A stretch of 64,000 nt of DNA from Patescibacteria group bacterium (lineage in GTDB: Bacteria; Patescibacteriota; Patescibacteriia; Patescibacteriales; WJLG01), in assembly GCA_028707065.1 (NCBI GenBank), contig JAQTUZ010000001.1:98737-162736 (forward strand). The letters are read 5' to 3'. How positions within the stretch are numbered: the first letter of the stretch is position 1; each line of letters begins with the position of its first letter. Position numbers and translations under genes: made by a program. Shown one piece after another: positions 4,025 to 53,980 of this stretch. The notes below the pieces were generated by a model. It worked only from the letters and a program-made list of their open reading frames with translations, had not been told where the DNA came from and did not search any database.

Positions 4025-5659
4025 TTGTCAATGAAAATCGTTAAAAATATCTTAAAATCGTTGAATAACAGGAAAATCGCCATGCTCGGGCTGGGGGTGG
4101 AAAATTTGGCGTTGGTGAAATATTTGTTACGCCGCAGTCCCGCGGCGGAGACTGCGGCGGGGCAAGGTTTGCACATTACCGTTTGTGATCCAAAGTCGGC
4201 GGCGGAATTGGGCGACAGATATTTGGAAATCAAGCAGCTGGCGAAGAAGAATAAATTGCCGGAAATAATTCTGATGACCGGCAAGAATTATGACGCGCAT
4301 CTGGCGGATTTTGACATTATTTTCCGTTCGCCCGGCTATCCGCTGTTCAATCCGAATTTGCTCAAAGCGAAAAAGGCCGGCGTGATAATTTCCAGCCCGA
4401 TGAAATTATTTTTTGAATTGTGTCCGACGAAAAATATCATCGGCGTCACCGGCTCGAAAGGTAAAGGCACGACTTCGTCGCTGATTTATGAAATTTTAAA
4501 AAAAGCCACAACCACCCCCGGAACCACCCCCAAACCCCTCCTTCGAAAGGAGGGGAGAGTTTGGCTGGGTGGAAATATCGGCAATGCGCCGTTTGAATTT
4601 ATCGAGAAAATAAAGCCGAAGGATTTCGTGGTTTTGGAATTATCCAGTTTTCAATTGGAAGATTTGGATGTGAGTCCGCATATTGCCGTGGTCACGAATT
4701 TATTCAAAGAACATTTGGCTCCGGCCGATCCGAACAATCCGAATTATCATCGGTCAATGAAAGATTATTGGGCGGCGAAAGCGAATATTTTCTCGCACCA
4801 GCAAAAAAATGATTATTTGGTTATAAATGAAAAATTGAAAAACAAAATTCCCCTCTCGAGAGGGGTGGCCGCGCCGCGCGGACGGGGTGTGTTAAATGGC
4901 GGCACAAAAGTAATCTTTTGTTCTAGCTCTGCTTTGCCAAGTAATTTGATTGGGGCGCATAACAAAGAAAACTTGGCGGCGGCCGAGGCGGTGGCGAAAA
5001 TTTTGAAGATCAAGCCGGAAATCGTGGCGCGGGCGGTGAAAAATTTCCAGGGCTTGCCGCATCGGCTCGAATTTGTGGCTGAAATTAACGGCGTCAGATA
5101 TTTTGATGATAGCTTTGCGACCGTGCCCGATGTTTCGGTAATCGCGCTTAAAGCGGTCGGCGGAAAGTCCCCTCTCGAGAGGCCCACCTACGCTAAAGCT
5201 CCGGTAGGGCAAGGGTGGCCAACCTTAAAAGAGATAGCTTGTCCAACGAAGCTCCGCCGCGGAGCGAAGTTGGAGGGTGTGTTAAAGTTGGGTGGTAGTA
5301 AAAGCGAGATTGCTTCGCGAGGCGCTCGCAATGACAAAAATATAATATTGTTGGCCGGCGGCGCGGACAAAGGTTCGGATTTTAAAAAATTCGCCCAAGA
5401 AATAACCAAGCGCGTAAAATATTTAATTTTATTCAAAGGCAAAGGGACGGATAGATTGAAGAAAGAATTACAAATTACAAATTACAAATTTCCGATCATT
5501 GCAGTTGACACTATGAAAAAAGCTGTGGAAATTGCCAGACGAGAGGCGGAGTTGGGCGACGTTATCCTGCTTTCCACCGGTTGCGCCAGCTTCGGCTGTT
5601 TTAAAAATTATAAAGAACGAGGTGACTTTTTCAAGGAGGAGACGCTAAAAAACAAATAA
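4025..5659 (+). CDS. murD: UDP-N-acetylmuramoylalanine--D-glutamate ligase with several repeat-derived insertions
   Basis: 544 aa; Mur ligase P-loop GVTGSKGKGTT, GGNIGNAPFEF, HRLEFV, LLAGGADKGSDF; extra segments match dispersed repeats. Confidence 0.9.
   Translation: MSMKIVKNILKSLNNRKIAMLGLGVENLALVKYLLRRSPAAETAAGQGLHITVCDPKSAAELGDRYLEIKQLAKKNKLPEIILMTGKNYDAHLADFDIIFRSPGYPLFNPNLLKAKKAGVIISSPMKLFFELCPTKNIIGVTGSKGKGTTSSLIYEILKKATTTPGTTPKPLLRKEGRVWLGGNIGNAPFEFIEKIKPKDFVVLELSSFQLEDLDVSPHIAVVTNLFKEHLAPADPNNPNYHRSMKDYWAAKANIFSHQQKNDYLVINEKLKNKIPLSRGVAAPRGRGVLNGGTKVIFCSSSALPSNLIGAHNKENLAAAEAVAKILKIKPEIVARAVKNFQGLPHRLEFVAEINGVRYFDDSFATVPDVSVIALKAVGGKSPLERPTYAKAPVGQGWPTLKEIACPTKLRRGAKLEGVLKLGGSKSEIASRGARNDKNIILLAGGADKGSDFKKFAQEITKRVKYLILFKGKGTDRLKKELQITNYKFPIIAVDTMKKAVEIARREAELGDVILLSTGCASFGCFKNYKERGDFFKEETLKNK
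4511..4555 (+). repeat. family B element (with a 9-nt partial duplication), in frame in murD
   Basis: ACCACCCCCgga-ACCACCCCCAAACCCCTCCTTCGAAAGGAGGGG; peptide TTPGTTPKPLLRKEG right after the P-loop. Confidence 0.85.
4849..4896 (+). repeat. family A element, in frame in murD
   Basis: TCCCCTCTCGAGAGGGGTG-GCCGCGCCGCGCGGAC-GGGGTGTGTTAAA; peptide IPLSRGVAAPRGRGVLN. Confidence 0.85.
5168..5285 (+). repeat. long-A element (about 118 nt), in frame in murD
   Basis: Collinear with the intergenic copy at 60891-61008, about 85 percent identical by eye; shared GCTCCGCCGCGGAGC hairpin. Confidence 0.85.
5307..5339 (-). repeat. family C hairpin (ATTGC/GCAAT variant), in frame in murD
   Basis: Reverse complement reads TTTTGTCATTGCGAGCGCCTCGCGAAGCAATCT, collinear with TTTTGTCATCCTGAGCGCCGCGCGAAGGATCT at 10466. 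Confidence 0.75.
5467..5491 (+). repeat. (ATTACAA)x3 heptamer tract inside murD
   Basis: Tandem heptamers read in frame as LQITNYKF. Confidence 0.8.
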
Positions 5660-8912: not shown

Positions 8913-10463
8913 GTGTTATGTGTTATGTGTTATATTATTTTTTTATCTATATTTTTAATTCTGTTTTCTGTTTTGGCCTGGCGTCGGCTTGATTGGGCGG
9001 TAATGCTGATTATCGCCGGATTGCCTTTATATTTGGTCAGATTTAAGGTATGGTCGATACCAATGACGCTTTTAGAAGCGATGATCTTGATCGCTTTTTT
9101 TTGTTGGATTATTTTTAAAACAAAATTTTGGGATTTTTTACGAGGGAAATATAAAATTAAAGATTTTTTAAAAAATAGTCCGTGGAATAAAAAGGGCAGC
9201 GCGGAGGGGCGAAGAAGATATCCTTTCGGCATCGAAATAATTTTACTTTTGATCATTTCGTTTGCCGCCGTGGGCGTGGCGCATTTTTCCGCAACATCTT
9301 TGGGGCTTTGGAAGGCCTATTTTTTTGAGCCGATCTTGCTGTACATTCTGATCTTGAATATATTTCAGGAGTCCCCCCTCCTTTCTAAGGAGGGGTTTGG
9401 GGGTGGTTATAGTGGCGTTAATAAAATCGGCTTGAGTCTGGCCGTTGGCGCCTTGATCGTTTCTTCTTATGCTATCTTCCAAAAGTTCACCGGTTTCGGC
9501 ATTGATAATCCGCTCTGGGCGGCCGAAACAACGCGCCGGGTGGTTTCATTTTTCGGCTATCCCAACGCGGTAGGTTTGTATCTTGGGCCGGTCATTCCGG
9601 TTTTAACCGCCTTTTTATTTTTGCCGCCCAAGAAAGATTTTTCTCCGCTCGAGAAAAAAATTCATTATCCTCTTCCCGAAGAAAAAATTTCCGCGATTAG
9701 TTTGTCAAAAGGTTTTTTAGGGTTTATTATCGTTTTGTCATTAGCGGCGGTTTATTTTGCCAAATCGGACGGAGCGCTGATTGGCTTGGCCGTTGCCGCT
9801 TTTATTTTTTGTTTGTTTATTAATAAAAAAGCGCGGATCGCGGTTCTGGCCGTTGTCGTGATCGCCGCGATCGGAATTTATTTTTATCCGCCGATTGCCA
9901 AGCCGCTCGAGAGAAAAATAACCATCGAAGATTTTTCCGGACAGGTGCGCCGCTTGCAATGGAAGGAAACCTTAATGATGCTTAACGGGGAGAAGAAGAT
10001 TTGGGGGATCGGCCTGGGGAATTTTCAGCAAGCGGTTGCGCCCTATCATCAGCCGGGATTTTTTTATGATGACGGCACTGATCCTTTATTCCACCAGCAC
10101 ACGGTTGAAAGCGCCGCCGTTCGCGCCCGCACCTGGCAGCCGGTGGAAATATATCTGTATCCGCACAATATCATTTTAAATTTTTGGGTAGAATTAGGCT
10201 TGGCTGGGCTATTTTTATTTGTTTGGATTTTCGGCAAAACAATTTATCTTTTATCATCTATCGTTTATCATTTTAAGGCGAAAAAAGATAAAACAAGTTT
10301 ATTTTTAGCCTTAGGCTTGCTATCCGCAATAATTGTTATTATCGTCCATGGTCTGGTCGATGTCCCTTATTTTAAGAACGATCTATCTTGTATTTTTTGG
10401 ATTTTAGTGGCAATATTGGTTTTGTTGGATTTGAGAAATAAAGATAAACGAATTGAATGTTGA
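8913..10463 (+). CDS. O-antigen ligase / Wzy-like polytopic membrane protein
   Basis: 516 aa, more than 10 TM helices with a large loop (YPHNIILNFWVELG type motif); contains a family B repeat. Confidence 0.55.
   Translation: MLCVMCYIIFLSIFLILFSVLAWRRLDWAVMLIIAGLPLYLVRFKVWSIPMTLLEAMILIAFFCWIIFKTKFWDFLRGKYKIKDFLKNSPWNKKGSAEGRRRYPFGIEIILLLIISFAAVGVAHFSATSLGLWKAYFFEPILLYILILNIFQESPLLSKEGFGGGYSGVNKIGLSLAVGALIVSSYAIFQKFTGFGIDNPLWAAETTRRVVSFFGYPNAVGLYLGPVIPVLTAFLFLPPKKDFSPLEKKIHYPLPEEKISAISLSKGFLGFIIVLSLAAVYFAKSDGALIGLAVAAFIFCLFINKKARIAVLAVVVIAAIGIYFYPPIAKPLERKITIEDFSGQVRRLQWKETLMMLNGEKKIWGIGLGNFQQAVAPYHQPGFFYDDGTDPLFHQHTVESAAVRARTWQPVEIYLYPHNIILNFWVELGLAGLFLFVWIFGKTIYLLSSIVYHFKAKKDKTSLFLALGLLSAIIVIIVHGLVDVPYFKNDLSCIFWILVAILVLLDLRNKDKRIEC
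9375..9407 (-). repeat. family B element (inverted orientation), in frame in the Wzy-like gene
   Basis: Reverse complement ACCACCCCCAAACCCCTCCTTAGAAAGGAGGGG differs at 1 nt from 4523-4555; peptide SPLLSKEGFGGG. Confidence 0.85.
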
Positions 10464-10465
10464 AT

Positions 10466-10623
10466 TTTTGTCATCCTGAGCGCCGCGCGAAGGATCTATT
10501 GTCCGAGAAAAATATCAAAATATCATTAAATATTAGAATCGATATGGCGATAAAAATTTTGGAAACGGAAATTTAACCTTCCTGCAATATAGATCCTTCG
10601 TCTCACGACTCAGGATGACAAAA
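10466..10623. mobile_element. MITE-like element with family C terminal inverted repeats
   Basis: TTTTGTCATCCTGAG..GAAGGATCTAT at the left, its reverse complement at the right, about 85 nt AT-rich core, no ORF. Confidence 0.65.
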
Positions 10624-10629
10624 TAATTT

Positions 10630-10723
10630 GGAGATGTGCCAGAGTGGTCGCCCGCTACGTCGGCCTTTGGCCGCGAGCGGGTCCGCGCACGCCGCCATCG
10701 GGCGGCGATGTCGCGGAAATGGG
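10630..10723 (+). pseudogene. duplicated 5' part of tRNA-Ser interrupted in the D-loop by a family E element
   Basis: GGAGATGTGCCAGAGTGGTCG [67 nt] AATGGG versus intact GGAGAGGTGCCAGAGTGGTCGAATGGG at 10980. Confidence 0.7.
10651..10717 (+). repeat. family E GC-rich double-hairpin element
   Basis: CCCGCTACGTCGGCC..GGCCGCGAGCGGGTCCGCGCA..ATGTCGCGGA; a reverse-complement copy lies at 15234-15297. Confidence 0.85.
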
Positions 10724-10729
10724 ATTATT

Positions 10730-10975
10730 ATGTATTATGTTTATTTTATAAAAAGTTTTAAAAATGGGAGTTTGTATATTGGATCAACGGAAGATTTAAG
10801 AAAAAGACTGGCGGAACATAACGCGGGAAGAACCCAATCAACCAAACCATTTTGTCCCTGGGGAGTTGTATATTATGAGGCTCATTTGAGTAAGGAATTA
10901 GCCAGACGAGCGGAAATATTTTATAAGACTGGGCAAGGGCGAAGACAAGTAAAGAAAAAATTAGGAATTGAATAA
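10730..10975 (+). CDS. GIY-YIG nuclease family protein
   Basis: MYYVYFIKS..GSLYIGSTEDLRKRLAEHN is a GIY-YIG core; start moved from 10628 to the in-frame ATG 10730 because upstream codons are tRNA fragment plus repeat. Confidence 0.8.
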   Translation: MYYVYFIKSFKNGSLYIGSTEDLRKRLAEHNAGRTQSTKPFCPWGVVYYEAHLSKELARRAEIFYKTGQGRRQVKKKLGIE

Positions 10976-10979
10976 TTTT

Positions 10980-11066
10980 GGAGAGGTGCCAGAGTGGTCG
11001 AATGGGCTTGACTCGAAATCAAGTGTGTTCGCAAGAATACCGAGGGTTCGAATCCCTCCCTCTCCG
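10980..11066 (+). tRNA. tRNA-Ser (anticodon CGA)
   Basis: Hand-folded cloverleaf: acceptor GGAGAGG/CCTCTCC, anticodon arm CTTGA-CTCGAAA-TCAAG, long variable arm, T-loop TTCGAAT. Confidence 0.9.
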
Positions 11067-11108
11067 CTAGAAAATTTAAATTACATTGCTAAAATGTAAA
11101 ATAACCTT

Positions 11109-11426
11109 ATGGGTTTATTAGATTTTTTATCAGAAATTTTTGATGGAAATTCCAGTAGAGAAAATAAAACATATATTGATGAAAACGGTTATAGAAGGTT
11201 TTCAGACTCCGATAAATTAGTAAGCCGTTGGATAGTTGAGAAAAAATTAGGCAGGAGACTTAATCAGGACGAAGAGGTTCACCACAGAGACAGAAACAAG
11301 TTAAATAATCGCCCAGGCAATCTCGAAGCCCTAACTCCTGAGGAGCATAACAGAGAACATGGACTTCCAGATGATTATAATTTAGATTATGATAATGATC
11401 TTGATGATTATGACGATGACTTTTAG
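11109..11426 (+). CDS. HNH endonuclease with acidic C-terminal tail
   Basis: EEVHHRDRNKLNNRPGNLEALTPEEHNREH is an HNH motif. Confidence 0.8.
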   Translation: MGLLDFLSEIFDGNSSRENKTYIDENGYRRFSDSDKLVSRWIVEKKLGRRLNQDEEVHHRDRNKLNNRPGNLEALTPEEHNREHGLPDDYNLDYDNDLDDYDDDF

Positions 11427-15484: not shown

Positions 15485-17230
15485 ATGCGAAGGAAAACGG
15501 CCAAGGAACCTGAAAAAAATATTTTCAGCAAATTAGGTTTGAAATTGATCATTCCTTTTTTTGCCATTTCTTTTATCGCCTTGCTTTTGATCGGCGGGCT
15601 TTTTTATTTTCAATATCAGGCGCAAATCAGCTTCGTGCAAAAGATCGAGCAGAATATTTCTTCCCCGGCCGCCGCTCGCGGGCTATTGGCGGAATTGCCG
15701 GCGCAGGAATTGGCGCGGGACAGGCAAATTTTTTATCTGGCCGGCGGCAGCGCGATTTTCATCCTTTTGCTTTTTATCGGTTTGATCATTTTTTTGATTT
15801 ATCGACAGTTGCTTAGGCCGTTGAGATCTTTCGAGCAAAAGATCGCCGAAATGAAAAAGGGCGGCCTTGATAATAAGATCAAGCTGGCGGCTACGGATGA
15901 ATTGGGCTATTTGGCGGATATTTTTAAGCAAATAAACGGTCATTTGCAAGAAACTTATGTCCGCGCGGAAGAGACGATCAAAAAAAGAACCAAAGACGCG
16001 GACAGGATGGTCGCGGTCTTGCAGAAGAAAAATTTAAAAATGAAGGATAAAGAAGCCACTCTGGCAAATCGGCTCGAAGACGCCTTTTTGCTGGAGAAAG
16101 AGCTGAAAGAAGGAAGGGATCGGGTGAGCGCGATCATCGCCTGCATGGGCGAAGGATTGATCGTCACCGACAAGGCGGGAAAAATTATTTCCCTTAATCC
16201 GGCCGCGGAATGGATGCTGAAAATAACCGCCAATAAGGTCGCCGGCCAGAATCTTGACGCCGTGGCGCCTCTTTTTATCGGCAAGGAGTGCGAGAAAAGG
16301 GTTCCGTTCGTGGATTATCCGACCATCAAGGCCATTCGCTTCAGAAAAATTTTGATTTTCAATCTGACCGATGACTATTATTTCTTATCGAAGTCGGGCG
16401 CGAAAATGGCGGTTATTTTATCATCTTCGCCGCTCTTGAAAGAAGGGAGGGTCTTCGGCGCCGTAACTATTTTCAGGAACATGAGCGCGGAGAAGCGGCT
16501 GGATGATGCCAAAAATAATTTTATTTCGATCGCTTCCCACCAATTGCGCACCCCGCTCACTTCAATGCGCTGGTTTTCCGAGATGCTTATTTCCGGAGAT
16601 GCCGGCGTCATCAATAAAAAGCAGACAAAATTCGTGGAGCGCATTTATCAGGGCACGGAGCGCATGATCAGGTTGGTGAATCTTCTCTTGCAGATCGCTC
16701 GCGTCGAGGCGGGCCGCGTCAAGATCGAGCCGATCCCCATTGATTTCAAAAATACCATCCAGGGAGTGGAGATCACGCTCAAGACTTTGCTGGAAGAGAA
16801 ATCGCAAAGATTGAAGATGATTTTCAAGCCCGATCCTTTTCCTTCCGTTTACATGGATCAGGAAGTGATTTGGCAGGTTTTTCAGAATTTGCTTTCCAAT
16901 GCCAGCCGTTACGCGTCCAGGAGAAGCACGATCACCGTAACCGCTGAAAAAAAAGGCGAGCTGGCGGAATTTTCCATCGCCGATAAAGGGATCGATATTC
17001 CCCACGACGCGCAAGACCGGATTTTCCATAAATTTTTCCGCGCGGAAAACGCCATCAAGATCGTCCCCGAGGGTTCGGGGCTGGGCTTGTCTTTGGTAAA
17101 ATCGCTGGTCGAGGGCTGGGGAGGGAAAATCTGGTTCAAATCCCAAAAAGGCAAGGGGACCACTTTTTATTTCACCGTTCCTCTCTCCGGCATGAAGCCG
17201 AAGCGCGGGGATGTGGGCTTGGCAATATAG
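15485..17230 (+). CDS. sensor histidine kinase (TM-HAMP-coiled coil-PAS-HisKA-HATPase)
   Basis: 581 aa; H-box SHQLRTPLTSM, N-box NLLSNASRY, G-boxes DKGIDI and GSGLGLSL. Confidence 0.9.
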   Translation: MRRKTAKEPEKNIFSKLGLKLIIPFFAISFIALLLIGGLFYFQYQAQISFVQKIEQNISSPAAARGLLAELPAQELARDRQIFYLAGGSAIFILLLFIGLIIFLIYRQLLRPLRSFEQKIAEMKKGGLDNKIKLAATDELGYLADIFKQINGHLQETYVRAEETIKKRTKDADRMVAVLQKKNLKMKDKEATLANRLEDAFLLEKELKEGRDRVSAIIACMGEGLIVTDKAGKIISLNPAAEWMLKITANKVAGQNLDAVAPLFIGKECEKRVPFVDYPTIKAIRFRKILIFNLTDDYYFLSKSGAKMAVILSSSPLLKEGRVFGAVTIFRNMSAEKRLDDAKNNFISIASHQLRTPLTSMRWFSEMLISGDAGVINKKQTKFVERIYQGTERMIRLVNLLLQIARVEAGRVKIEPIPIDFKNTIQGVEITLKTLLEEKSQRLKMIFKPDPFPSVYMDQEVIWQVFQNLLSNASRYASRRSTITVTAEKKGELAEFSIADKGIDIPHDAQDRIFHKFFRAENAIKIVPEGSGLGLSLVKSLVEGWGGKIWFKSQKGKGTTFYFTVPLSGMKPKRGDVGLAI

Positions 17231-18672: not shown

Positions 18673-20763
18673 ATGTTGCATTATATTCAACTAGGGCTAA
18701 TTATTATTATTTCTTTGGTTAATTTTTTATTAGCGCTTATTGTTTTGCGAAATAATCCCCGAAATATTATTAATAAAGTTTTTTTTCTGATCAGTGTTTT
18801 TTTGGGCCTTTGGGGATTTTCCCTCCTCTTTTATCAATTTCCCCTTATTTTTTCCAGCCTGGCTTGGATTAAAATGACTTATCTGTCAGCTTCTTTTTAT
18901 TTAATCTTTGTTTTAGCTTTTTCTTTTATTTTCCCCACCGCTATTTATCGCCAATTTTGGCGCCCGGCGGCGTTTTTTAGCTTGATCTTTTTGGCCGTAA
19001 CGATTTGGCTGTTATTTTTTACAAAAATTTGGATAATTGACGTGGTGGTTGATCCGCAAAAGGGCTTGCAAACTATTTGGGGAAACGGTTATTATTTATG
19101 GCTGCTTATTATTTGGATCAGTATTATCTGGACCTTTATCAATCTTATTATTAAAAGCCGCCATTCTTCAGGATTGCGAAAACTGCAATTAAAATTTTTT
19201 TCTTATTCGTTTGTTTTGTTTTCTTTTTTAGTCACTGTTTCCGACGGAATAGTTCCGATTTTTTTTAATGATACCCGCCTTTTTTATACTAGCGCTATTT
19301 TTAGCATTATTTTCAGCGGCGTCACCGCTTACGCGATTTTGAAACACCGCTTTATGGATATTCATCTGGTGGTCGCCCGCTCGATCTCTTATTTTCTTTT
19401 GCTTTTTTCTTTCGGCGTTTTTTATTCGCTGACCTTATTCCTTTGCGCCACTTTTATTATCGCCGAGCCGATCGCCATCGGCACTTATGCCTTGTTTTCT
19501 TTGATCGCTTTGGCCGTTGCTTTTTCTTTTCAGCCGCTGCTGGCTTTTTTTCAAAGAATCACCGACAATATTTTTTACAAGCAAAATTATAACGAATCCC
19601 GCCTGCTCTATGACTTGGCGCTCTTGATGGCTTCGACTTTCAGCTTGGTGGAATTGACGGACAAATTGCTGGAAAAGATCATGGCCGCGATCCGCGTCAG
19701 CTTCGGCGCTTTCGTTTTGATCGACAATAAGAAAATTTTTCATCTGGTCCAGCGGGGCTATGCCGGGAAGATGAAAATTTCCGACGGCGATATTTCCCGG
19801 TTCGTCAAACAGACGCAGATAGTTTTATTCGATGAATTGCCGGAAAACGCGCTGAAAGAAACGATGCGGCGGTTGAATATCAATGTTATCATTCCTTTGC
19901 GCGTCAAAGGAGAAACCGAAGATGTTTTGATCTTCGGCGAAAAGCTTTCCGGCAACCCTTATACCGATAAAGATATCAGTTTTTTCCAGGTTTTTGCTTC
20001 AGCCGCGTCCGCGGCGATCAAAAATGTTTCCAACGTCGAGCAGATTATGCGGCTTGATGAGCTGAAGTCCGAGTTCGTCAATGTTGTTTCGCACCAATTG
20101 CGCACGCCGCTTTCCGTCGCCCGCTGGAATTTCGAGATGATCTTGGATAATGTTTTCGGCAAATTGCCGCCCAAAGTGGAACAGATCACCCGGGACACGT
20201 ATTTGCAATTCGTTACGCTCAATCGGGGCTTGAATAATCTGATGGCGGTTTTGGAGATTGAAAAAAATGAAGTGCTGATGAAGTATGATAAAATCGATAT
20301 TGATCAGGCGATTATCAAGGAAGTGATCAGCGATCTCGCTGAAGTGATCAAAGAAAAAAAGATCACGATCAAGCAAGAAAATCCGATTGCCAGAAAATTC
20401 AGCCTTGACCAAAAGAAAATAAAAGCGGTTTTTGAGATTATTCTGGATAATGCCATCCGCTATTCTCCGGACGGCTCAACCATTACTATTTCCCAGACCT
20501 TGCGGAAGGGCAAGAGAAAAAATGAAATTTTGATTTCCGTGGCTGATCGCGGGATCGGCATTTTGTCCGTTAACAAGGAAGCGATTTTTACCAAATTTTT
20601 TCGCGGCGAGGAGGCGAAAAAAATGTCGCCGGACGGTTTTGGCCTGGGGCTTTTTATGGCGAAAAAATATGTCAAATATCACGGCGGAGATCTTTGGTTT
20701 GAAAAAAACAAAGCCGGCGGCTCGACCTTTAGCTTTTTTATTCCCGAGAGAACGGGAAAATAA
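18673..20763 (+). CDS. sensor histidine kinase with a large polytopic N-terminal membrane domain
   Basis: 696 aa; about 8-9 TM helices, central GAF-like region, H-box SHQLRTPLSVA, ATPase motifs DRGIGI and GFGLGL. Confidence 0.85.
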   Translation: MLHYIQLGLIIIISLVNFLLALIVLRNNPRNIINKVFFLISVFLGLWGFSLLFYQFPLIFSSLAWIKMTYLSASFYLIFVLAFSFIFPTAIYRQFWRPAAFFSLIFLAVTIWLLFFTKIWIIDVVVDPQKGLQTIWGNGYYLWLLIIWISIIWTFINLIIKSRHSSGLRKLQLKFFSYSFVLFSFLVTVSDGIVPIFFNDTRLFYTSAIFSIIFSGVTAYAILKHRFMDIHLVVARSISYFLLLFSFGVFYSLTLFLCATFIIAEPIAIGTYALFSLIALAVAFSFQPLLAFFQRITDNIFYKQNYNESRLLYDLALLMASTFSLVELTDKLLEKIMAAIRVSFGAFVLIDNKKIFHLVQRGYAGKMKISDGDISRFVKQTQIVLFDELPENALKETMRRLNINVIIPLRVKGETEDVLIFGEKLSGNPYTDKDISFFQVFASAASAAIKNVSNVEQIMRLDELKSEFVNVVSHQLRTPLSVARWNFEMILDNVFGKLPPKVEQITRDTYLQFVTLNRGLNNLMAVLEIEKNEVLMKYDKIDIDQAIIKEVISDLAEVIKEKKITIKQENPIARKFSLDQKKIKAVFEIILDNAIRYSPDGSTITISQTLRKGKRKNEILISVADRGIGILSVNKEAIFTKFFRGEEAKKMSPDGFGLGLFMAKKYVKYHGGDLWFEKNKAGGSTFSFFIPERTGK

Positions 20764-20794: not shown

Positions 20795-20830
20795 TCATCC
20801 CGATCCCGCCCTAGCGGGAGAGGGATCCCT
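20795..20830 (+). repeat. family C hairpin (ATCCC/GGGAT variant)
   Basis: TCATCCCGATCCCGCCCTAGCGGGAGAGGGATCC, collinear with the reverse complement of 38241-38280. Confidence 0.7.
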
Positions 20831-38240: not shown

Positions 38241-38280
38241 GATAGATCCCTCACCCGCCGGGGCGGGCTCGGGATGAAAA
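38241..38280 (-). repeat. family C hairpin (ATCCC/GGGAT variant)
   Basis: Reverse complement TTTTCATCCCGAGCCCGCCCCGGCGGGTGAGGGATCTATC. Confidence 0.7.
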
Positions 38281-38305
38281 TATCGGGTAATTACCCGATA
38301 TTTTC
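38276..38305. repeat. perfect 30-nt palindrome overlapping the pilM/N stop codon
   Basis: GAAAATATCGGGTAA|TTACCCGATATTTTC. Confidence 0.85.
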
Positions 38306-53356: not shown

Positions 53357-53431
53357 GCGCCCATAGTTCATCGGATAGAACACGACCCTTCTAAGGTTGT
53401 GAGGTAGGTTCGACTCCTACTGGGCGCACCA
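53357..53431 (+). tRNA. tRNA-Arg (anticodon TCT), CCA encoded
   Basis: Acceptor GCGCCCA/TGGGCGC, anticodon arm CGACC-CTTCTAA-GGTTG, T-arm GTAGG-TTCGACT-CCTAC. Confidence 0.9.
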
Positions 53432-53512: not shown

Positions 53513-53980
53513 ATGACATGGAATTATATAGCAGGATTTTTTGACGGTGAAGGATCTTTGGTCCATCACGGGAAAGGATTTAGGGTTACTATTTCCCAGA
53601 CGAATTTTGAAGTTTTGGAATCAATTAGGACATTTTCCGGAGTTGGTTATGTTATTAAGCCAAGAAAAAGAAAAGCTCACTGGAAAGATAACTGGGTGTA
53701 TTATGTGGCCCGGCAAAAGGATGTTTATTTTTTTATGATGAAGATGAAGCCATTTTTAGTTGTTAAAAGAGATCTTTTTCTTTCGGTTGAAAATAAAATT
53801 TTAAATTTTGTAAAAAGACAGAAAGAAAAAAATATTTTTCGAGAAAGAAAGGCGAACTTGGCCGTTAGATTAAGAAATGAAGGATATAGTTATCGAGAAA
53901 TAGGAAAAAGAACGAATACTGATTTTGGACAAATAAGAAGAGTTATTTTAAAGCATGGTGGTCGTAGCTCAATTGGTTAG
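53513..53980 (+). CDS. LAGLIDADG homing endonuclease (single-motif type)
   Basis: IAGFFDGEGS motif; TATAAT box 6 nt upstream of the ATG; the last 24 nt overlap tRNA-His. Confidence 0.85.
   Translation: MTWNYIAGFFDGEGSLVHHGKGFRVTISQTNFEVLESIRTFSGVGYVIKPRKRKAHWKDNWVYYVARQKDVYFFMMKMKPFLVVKRDLFLSVENKILNFVKRQKEKNIFRERKANLAVRLRNEGYSYREIGKRTNTDFGQIRRVILKHGGRSSIG

Follow-up and report, generated by a model that had tools for sequence, protein, structure and literature searches.

The closest described counterparts of the hairpins analysed here, five copies of which lie in a 64,000-nt stretch of a Patescibacteria group bacterium genome (GenBank assembly GCA_028707065.1, contig JAQTUZ010000001.1, positions 98,737 to 162,736; the whole stretch is called the window below), are the CGTC-tagged repetitive extragenic palindromic (REP) sequences of the families CGTC-1 to CGTC-4 (Di Nocera, De Gregorio & Rocco 2013, BMC Genomics 14:522; PMC3733652). 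We take their properties from the text and the supplementary peptide tables of that paper, which, rather than its consensus figure, were also used to set the window type apart from the four families. As described there, CGTC-1 is equated with Neisseria dRS3 and the Rickettsia palindromic element RPE-6, and the superfamily includes RPE-4. The tag is often TGTC and also CCTC, the stems almost invariably start with A-T and T-A, and the repeats of families 1-4 have a continuous stem of 8-9 bp, a loop of 4-5 nt and a 3-nt tail with the consensus CCA, with subfamilies that carry alternative complementary stems. In the published dimers HH predominates, TT is rare and HT negligible, with spacers of 20-100 bp whose ends are often complementary. 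CGTC repeats are also found inside genes, where the supplementary tables list peptides such as VIPAKAGI, SFPRKRES and DSRFRGND; the paper's text reports no associated transposase and no REP-associated tyrosine transposase (RAYT) flanked by CGTC repeats, and places the repeats in five phyla with none in Patescibacteria.

Measured against this description, the window type shares the YGTC tag, the A-T/T-A start of the stem, a short C-initial tail and alternative complementary stems, as well as the dominance of HH dimers, in-frame copies within genes, the lack of a linked transposase and an occurrence in several phyla. Moreover, some loci and MurD loops that have the window type also contain classical CGTC-1 units (CCGTCATTCCCGCGAAGGCGGGAATCCA). 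In contrast to the published repeats, the window type has five Watson-Crick pairs followed by a tandem GA/GA loop and a variable inner hairpin, its tail reads CYN instead of CCA, and it spans a dozen or more phyla including Patescibacteria instead of the five reported. No window-type peptide is found among the peptides of the published supplementary table. We consider it probable, at roughly 0.65, that the hairpins are a short, non-coding and non-autonomous repeated DNA palindrome and represent a bulged sibling within the CGTC/TGTC-tagged REP superfamily. What is new is the structural variant and its host range; the class of palindromic repeats itself is known and mechanistically unexplained.

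A hairpin family with a covarying stem

An earlier note on this DNA had grouped five hairpins as its family C and proposed that their stems change in a compensatory way. All five are present in the window at the places it named, as follows.

Positions 5308-5334, with the tag to 5337, minus strand: murD unit; stem ATTGC/GCAAT, tag TGTC, in-frame peptide EIASRGARNDK.
Positions 10471-10496, with tag and tail 10469-10499, plus strand: left unit of a doublet; tag TGTC, stem ATCCT/AGGAT, GA/GA loop, inner hairpin GCG-CCG-CGC, tail TAT.
Positions 10592-10618, with tag and tail 10589-10620, minus strand: right unit of the doublet; matches the left unit in tag, outer stem and tail, inner hairpin TCGT-GAG-ACGA.
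Positions 20795-20827, plus strand: single unit; stem ATCCC/GGGAT, inner hairpin TCCCGC-CCTA-GCGGGA, degenerate tag TCTC.
Positions 38245-38277, minus strand: single unit; stem ATCCC/GGGAT, inner hairpin CCCGC-CCCG-GCGGG, degenerate tag TTTC.

A frame pattern that does not require the arms to be complementary (TCATYSYGAKN{6,22}ARSRATC) matches the window exactly five times, against 0.03 matches expected from dinucleotide-preserving shuffles, none of which reached five in 100 trials. The outer triplets are complementary in all five matches (CCT/AGG twice, CCC/GGG twice and TGC/GCA once), which bears out the proposal of a single family with compensatory stem changes; that the inner hairpins vary yet stay paired is likewise seen, for instance, in the two halves of the doublet. 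Folded as DNA, four of the five units adopt the form (((((..(((loop)))..))))), comprising five outer pairs, a symmetric 2x2 internal loop of GA/GA and a G+C-rich inner hairpin, and the murD unit folds ambiguously. Since the individual hairpins are not unusually stable (z-scores of -0.1 to -3.0 across the window units), the signal rests on the level of the family and not on energy. The tag is TGTC in three copies and degenerate in two, and the stem opens with A-T and then T-A in all five, a position that was set by the search pattern in the wider scans described below. Past the closing AT pair, the tails read CTA in three copies and CTC and CCC in the others, all C-initial and resembling CCA without being identical to it. 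The unit at 20795-20827 is intergenic, 32 nt past the stop of the open reading frame (ORF) 18673-20763, and that at 38245-38277 sits between two minus-strand genes. The latter unit is adjoined by a separate hairpin with an A-run, a stem and a T-run (AAAATATCGGGTAATTACCCGATATTTT, 38270-38300), which resembles a bidirectional intrinsic terminator between two minus-strand genes of a pilus operon.

Public collections of viral contigs and of contigs from one genome per species were scanned with patterns that leave the stem free. The viral-contig pattern permits 8 x 8 triplet combinations, so that complementarity is expected by chance in 1/8 of the matches, and 145 of 152 were complementary among the matches listed. 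In the genome-contig pattern both triplets are NNN (GTCATNNNGAGCGNAGCGAN{3,4}ATC; chance 1/64), and 128 of 153 were exactly complementary among the matches listed, with at least nine stem types (TGC, CCT, TCT, TCC, GTT, CCC, GCT, CGC and TTC). A formal count over 100 distinct copies gave 97.7% paired cells versus 89.1% after shuffling, a value that none of 500 shuffles attained. Each of the three free pairs covaries, with changes on both sides, and sliding the partner as a control drops pairing to 15-56%. Pairing thus exceeds chance, as the earlier note had anticipated, and the covariation is real. Its further conclusion, that the hairpin itself is selected or recognised, is plausible but not forced, as shared descent and templated mutation can also yield pairing: because the copies fall into a few stem subfamilies, much of the covariation signal is shared descent, and quasi-palindrome (templated) mutation can restore the pairing of a palindrome without selection on the fold.

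Positions that were not imposed by the patterns are conserved as well. Among 149 genome-contig copies in the matches listed, GTCAT is preceded by T 91 times, by C 52 times, by A 5 times and by G once. In the genome-contig copies among the matches listed, ATC is followed by T in 90 cases and by C in 54, and one position further on C occurs 58 times and A 50 times, so that the tail of the family is CYN, mostly CT or CC followed by C or A. Within the 152 viral-contig copies among the matches listed, the free inner segment nearly always ends in CG(A), recreating the 3' GA of the internal loop. Its commonest form, CGNAGCG, yields a GCGNAGC mini-hairpin, a heptamer described as an extraordinarily stable DNA mini-hairpin (PMC13037366). 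In longer versions self-complementary inserts replace GCGNAGC, the search pattern allowing 6 to 24 nt for the free inner segment. The unit consensus is thus YGTC-AT-NNN-GA-[mini-hairpin]-GA-N'N'N'-AT-C(Y)N with a core of ~25 nt, and by our own reading of this consensus five of its six frames are without a stop codon.

The hairpin frame was seen in at least a dozen phyla in the public scans. The 80 genome loci listed include Nitrospirota, Alpha-, Beta- and Gammaproteobacteria, Desulfobacterota, Acidobacteriota, Chloroflexota and Planctomycetota, and likewise Bacteroidota, Gemmatimonadota, Verrucomicrobiota, Clostridia, Omnitrophota, Bdellovibrionota, Saccharibacteria and Gracilibacteria, with Bradyrhizobium, Sphingomonas, Sphingobium and Hymenobacter among the cultured carriers. 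Unannotated hairpin dimers are also present on alphaproteobacterial megaplasmids. The units are dispersed beside unrelated genes and survive within genes if the reading frame stays open; a Pfam search of 150 ORFs flanking hairpins returned unrelated housekeeping genes only and no enriched family, and orientation relative to neighbouring genes, judged from crude longest-ORF gene calls, showed no clear bias. Neither the hairpin sequence nor the translated peptides led to a match in the literature, the CGTC REP match having arisen via the REP/RAYT literature. The hairpin additionally occurs within tandem arrays, namely seven copies of a 105-bp unit in a Bacteroidaceae metagenome-assembled genome (L148, 3520-4260) and four copies of a 57-bp unit holding it in a viral contig (L026, 7494-7704), and locus L096 has many copies with partners spaced by 22 nt.

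The 158-bp dimer and the murD insert

Two of the five window units face each other and form a composite element, the parts of which are as follows.

Positions 10466-10623, no strand assigned: whole tag-outside (HH) dimer, REPIN-like, between the Wzy_C stop and a tRNA-Ser 5' remnant (10630).
Positions 10497-10591, no strand assigned: AT-rich spacer of the dimer; its ends, CTATTG and CAATATAG, prolong the inverted repeat.

The facing units start right after the stop of the Wzy_C gene (10461-10463), in agreement with the earlier placement of the pair directly 3' of a Wzy-like gene; the AT-rich core, previously given as 85 nt, counts 95-97 nt between the arms. Both arms have TTTTGTCATCCTGAG and CGAAGGATCTAT in common (15 + 12 nt) and differ only in the inner hairpin. 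The inverted repeat runs a few bases into the spacer, and the whole dimer folds as one long hairpin (z-score -4.85). In a close relative (loci L247 and L248) the 3' end of the Wzy gene and a cassette of a tRNA fragment and a GIY-YIG gene (>90% identical) are kept, and ~150-158 bp between them are missing; since both flanks are kept without the dimer, it is an indel as a unit. The junction is not placeable to the base against these loci, the AT-rich flanks being too diverged.

A survey of neighbouring pairs within 150 bp among 420 units from the window and the collected loci yielded 63 HH pairs (convergent, tags outside) versus 13 TT pairs (tags inside), and 24 tandem pairs (15 and 9). The spacers of the HH pairs measure 2-95 nt, mostly ~10-45 nt, that of the window dimer being the longest in the sample, and the halves are usually of one stem type. 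No direct repeats flanking doublets were found. We found no second copy of the spacer in the window, in loci L001-L242 or in the metagenome collection, where the exact 20-mer search gave chance matches only and diverged copies would escape. The unit is thus a REPIN-like doublet of hairpin repeats and not a multi-copy element derived from an insertion sequence (IS).

The second site at which relatives can be compared is murD, ORF 4025-5659, whose identity as MurD is confirmed. Compared with solved MurD structures, the window protein is longer by ~56 residues between its central and its C-terminal domain. The corresponding features are listed below.

Positions 5168-5335, plus strand: composite in-frame murD insert of 168 bp (56 codons) relative to the syntenic locus L241, made up of several nested hairpin repeats.
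Positions 5240-5273, plus strand: possible degenerate relative within the insert, TGTC-CAAC-GAA-GCTCCGC-C-GCGGAGC-GAA-GTTG; tag and a GAA/GAA internal loop are present, and the stem does not open with AT.

Locus L241 is syntenic to the window with 77-86% nucleotide identity over PolA-MurD-GH1-EamA-Wzy, and its 21 kb of syntenic DNA contain no hairpin of the TGTC family. Its empty site reads GGAAAG|AAAAAT, and the right-hand end of the window insert (...GCAATGAC) coincides exactly with the hairpin's GTCAT end. This empty/filled comparison identifies the A/T run beside the tag as target sequence and not as part of the element. At this pair, the sole one resolved to the nucleotide, there is no target-site duplication.

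Among 27 aligned MurD orthologues (66-80% identity, 431-574 aa) four insertion hot spots stand out, and the window MurD bears inserts at all of them. The loops at these hot spots hold several hairpin-repeat families translated in frame, present in some orthologues and absent from others. Whole dimers of the window type are found in orthologues (FCHSEPLARNL...NRSLADARDDK and CHCEES...EIASRGARNDK), and the equivalent loops also hold a dimer of the classical type (VIPAQAGIQ...LDSRLRGNDK), together with the published peptides VIPAKAGI, SFPRKRES and DSRFRGND. Other hairpin-repeat peptides seen in the hot spots are RRSPAAETAAG, PxPLLRKEG, THPVSRGASHPSxEG and PLSRGVAAPRGRGVLNGG. As with the Rickettsia palindromic elements, palindromic repeats are here tolerated as extra peptides in the surface loops of a housekeeping enzyme, in this case MurD with its four hot spots; unlike in Rickettsia, the host belongs to the Patescibacteria and several repeat families are nested at the MurD loops. 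RPE-1, of ~100-150 bp, is unrelated in sequence to the window type.

Mode of spread and rival explanations

The units are present or absent between close relatives, and in murD the GTCAT end forms a sharp boundary, with the target not duplicated. They may move, or may once have moved, in the form of folded single strands of DNA, handled by an enzyme that acts in trans and is specific for structure. Such an enzyme would read the invariant tag, the GA/GA loop and the tail, and the stem would need only to pair; an enzyme that reads unpaired or non-Watson-Crick bases, with the stem merely paired, would explain the covariation.

Several points weigh against a mobile sibling of the CGTC repeats. No mobilising enzyme was found beside the repeats, so that we infer transposition only from presence and absence and from analogy to REP/RAYT systems. 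Presence and absence could in part reflect precise deletion of a palindrome instead of insertion. The window copies are diverged and none are identical, giving no sign of a recent burst, and a part of the covariation signal goes back to the descent of a few stem subfamilies. Finally, the published families have an uninterrupted stem of 8-9 bp with a loop of 4-5 nt, from which the window type departs; we therefore class it as a sibling branch within the superfamily and not as a member of CGTC-1 to CGTC-4.

A possible though unlikely extension is that the GA-bulged TGTC hairpin constitutes an undescribed fifth branch of the CGTC REPs that is spread without a dedicated transposase by a universal host activity acting on folded single-stranded DNA, for which replication or repair enzymes handling hairpins or cruciforms would be candidates. 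This proposal builds on the nearly identical core YGTC-AT-NNN-GA-GCGNAGC-GA-NNN'-AT-C over a dozen or more phyla, including Patescibacteria with genomes of ~1 Mb.

We regard it as unlikely that the hairpins are REP or REPIN elements moved by a RAYT or an IS200/IS605-type Y1 (HUH) transposase encoded elsewhere. The architecture is alike, with an unpaired tag at the foot of the hairpin, inverted dimers and no target duplication, and enzymes of the Y1 type act in trans on single-stranded hairpins (PMC3116915, PMC6006769). The likeness to GTAG REPs and REPINs, whose RAYT is TnpA_REP, extends to a palindrome of 20-40 nt with an invariant unpaired tag, to inverted doublets that fold as one hairpin and to a dispersed, mostly extragenic and non-autonomous existence. 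However, the tag is YGTC and not GT[AG]G, REPIN families are lineage-specific whereas the window-type motif is nearly identical across phyla, and the family occurs in small Patescibacteria genomes. The cognate Y1 transposase suggested by the earlier note was not found: no Y1_Tnp lies within the window, which covers 64 kb of a 168-kb contig, and a phmmer search with three RAYT sequences against all six-frame ORFs of the 242 loci gave two weak matches only. These RAYT-like Y1_Tnp genes (L054, 1045-1851; L070, 1200-2940) are flanked by GTGG-tagged REP doublets (GTGGCGCAGGCTTCAGCCTGTGGGG) and not by TGTC hairpins; they are textbook REPtrons that lie by chance on contigs also bearing TGTC hairpins. 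The published survey, as far as its text goes, likewise holds no RAYT flanked by CGTC repeats (PMC3733652).

An improbable third alternative holds that the hairpins are not mobile at all and are functional RNA or DNA signals held by selection, be it as stabilisers of mRNA 3' ends, as terminators or as sites for a universal protein. Consistent with this, the unpaired bases are invariant and the tandem GA motif is conserved across phyla, three of the four intergenic window units (the left unit of the dimer and those at 20795 and 38245) shortly follow the end of a gene, and the text of the CGTC survey describes the recruitment of REPs to such functions (PMC3733652). Nevertheless, a terminator scan of 10200-11200 found no terminator-like site at the hairpins and no T-run 3' of them; a T-run lies 5' of the hairpin and in murD derives from the target. 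Copies point either way relative to the adjacent genes and also lie within ORFs, and close relatives lack the hairpins at corresponding sites. Rfam 15 returned only tRNAs at gathering score, and over the 158-bp element at E<=10 only a chance hit (E 5.3). In a hand tally of the variants of both scans, G-T mismatches in the stems are about as common as C-A mismatches, which speaks against strand asymmetry and is a weak argument against a strand-specific RNA role. Among individual motifs, a hammerhead ribozyme was rejected because the UGA of the hammerhead core is missing from the motif despite the similar look of CUGA...GAA, a CsrA site because the CsrA-like GGA is confined to the CCT stem variant, and a K-turn reading was considered from the sequence and dropped.

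The earlier description of the 158-bp unit as an element resembling a miniature inverted-repeat transposable element (MITE) holds in so far as it is a real composite inverted unit, supported by the 63 HH pairs and by its absence from L247 and L248. A classical IS-derived MITE, whose DDE transposase reads the terminal inverted repeats and leaves a target-site duplication, is already disfavoured and very unlikely. With such elements the unit shares small size, the lack of coding capacity, inverted ends (identical over 15 + 12 nt), folding as one long hairpin at a z-score of -4.85 and an indel between relatives, the whole unit being missing from L247 and L248. But no direct repeat flanks the doublets or the murD insert, the spacer is unique in everything searched, and the arms are independent repeat units that recur as singles, in tandem arrays and in dimers with unlike stems in the two halves; no parent IS with these ends was found, and no transposase is enriched nearby.

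That the adjacent GIY-YIG nuclease (Slx1-like, such nucleases being structure-specific) cuts and spreads the hairpins is hardly credible and, at the level of linkage, largely refuted: although the dimer lies ~100 nt upstream of its gene (PF01541), L241 has neither the gene nor any hairpin, and two homologues (P0154 and P0159, ...SLRNDG) have C-terminal extensions reading through a hairpin, L247 and L248 carry the cassette without the dimer, in four independent contexts the DNA retrieved around the gene, at most 4 kb to either side, is free of hairpins, 120 viral loci hold no homologue and the 242 hairpin-bearing loci only two weak matches, and the cassette is tied to tRNA-Ser instead.

tRNA-linked endonuclease cassettes and wider significance

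The neighbouring cassette and its counterparts are arranged as follows.

Window positions 10630-11067: GIY-YIG cassette, consisting of a copy of the tRNA-Ser 5' end, a G+C-rich stretch of ~80 nt, the GIY-YIG ORF (10730-10975) and tRNA-Ser (10980-11067).
L247 3940-4337, L249 3715-4161 and L257 ~4030-4469: counterparts of the cassette.

The 21-nt copy of the tRNA-Ser 5' end (10630-10650) matches the allele of the relative L241, in which the tRNA is present without the cassette (16475-16562), and the structured G+C-rich stretch is conserved within the cassette. This layout recurs in three other contexts (L247/L248, L249-L252 and L257), with tRNA-Ser following 4-26 nt after the GIY-YIG gene; in L253 tRNA-Ser again follows the gene, but neither the upstream tRNA fragment nor the G+C-rich stretch can be made out. 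In all, these contexts involve three Ser isoacceptors. The arrangement resembles a mobile cassette of a homing endonuclease whose target would be the D-loop region of tRNA-Ser genes. Two further free-standing ORFs of the homing-endonuclease type are found beside tRNA genes in the window, an HNH_3 ORF (11109-11426) directly after tRNA-Ser and a LAGLIDADG ORF (53513-53980) between tRNA-Arg (53357-53431) and tRNA-His; the 3' end of the LAGLIDADG ORF overlaps the tRNA-His call at 53958.

With regard to the hairpins, the origin and movement of CGTC-type repeats have been open since their definition, with no linked transposase. To this group the window type adds a structurally distinct branch, in which a tandem G-A internal loop is combined with the very stable DNA mini-hairpin GCGNAGC. 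It also extends the range of hosts far beyond that reported, and it offers clear empty and filled sites from a lineage whose genomes are very small. The repeats lengthen real proteins, as illustrated by MurD, which ranges from 431 to 574 aa among close relatives, and in annotation they give rise to spurious ORFs and to extensions at the N or C terminus. If the mobiliser is encoded by the host, phyletic comparison including reduced genomes could sharply narrow the candidates, and, should a universal host activity be responsible, minimal genomes like the source of this window would be the best place to find it by elimination.

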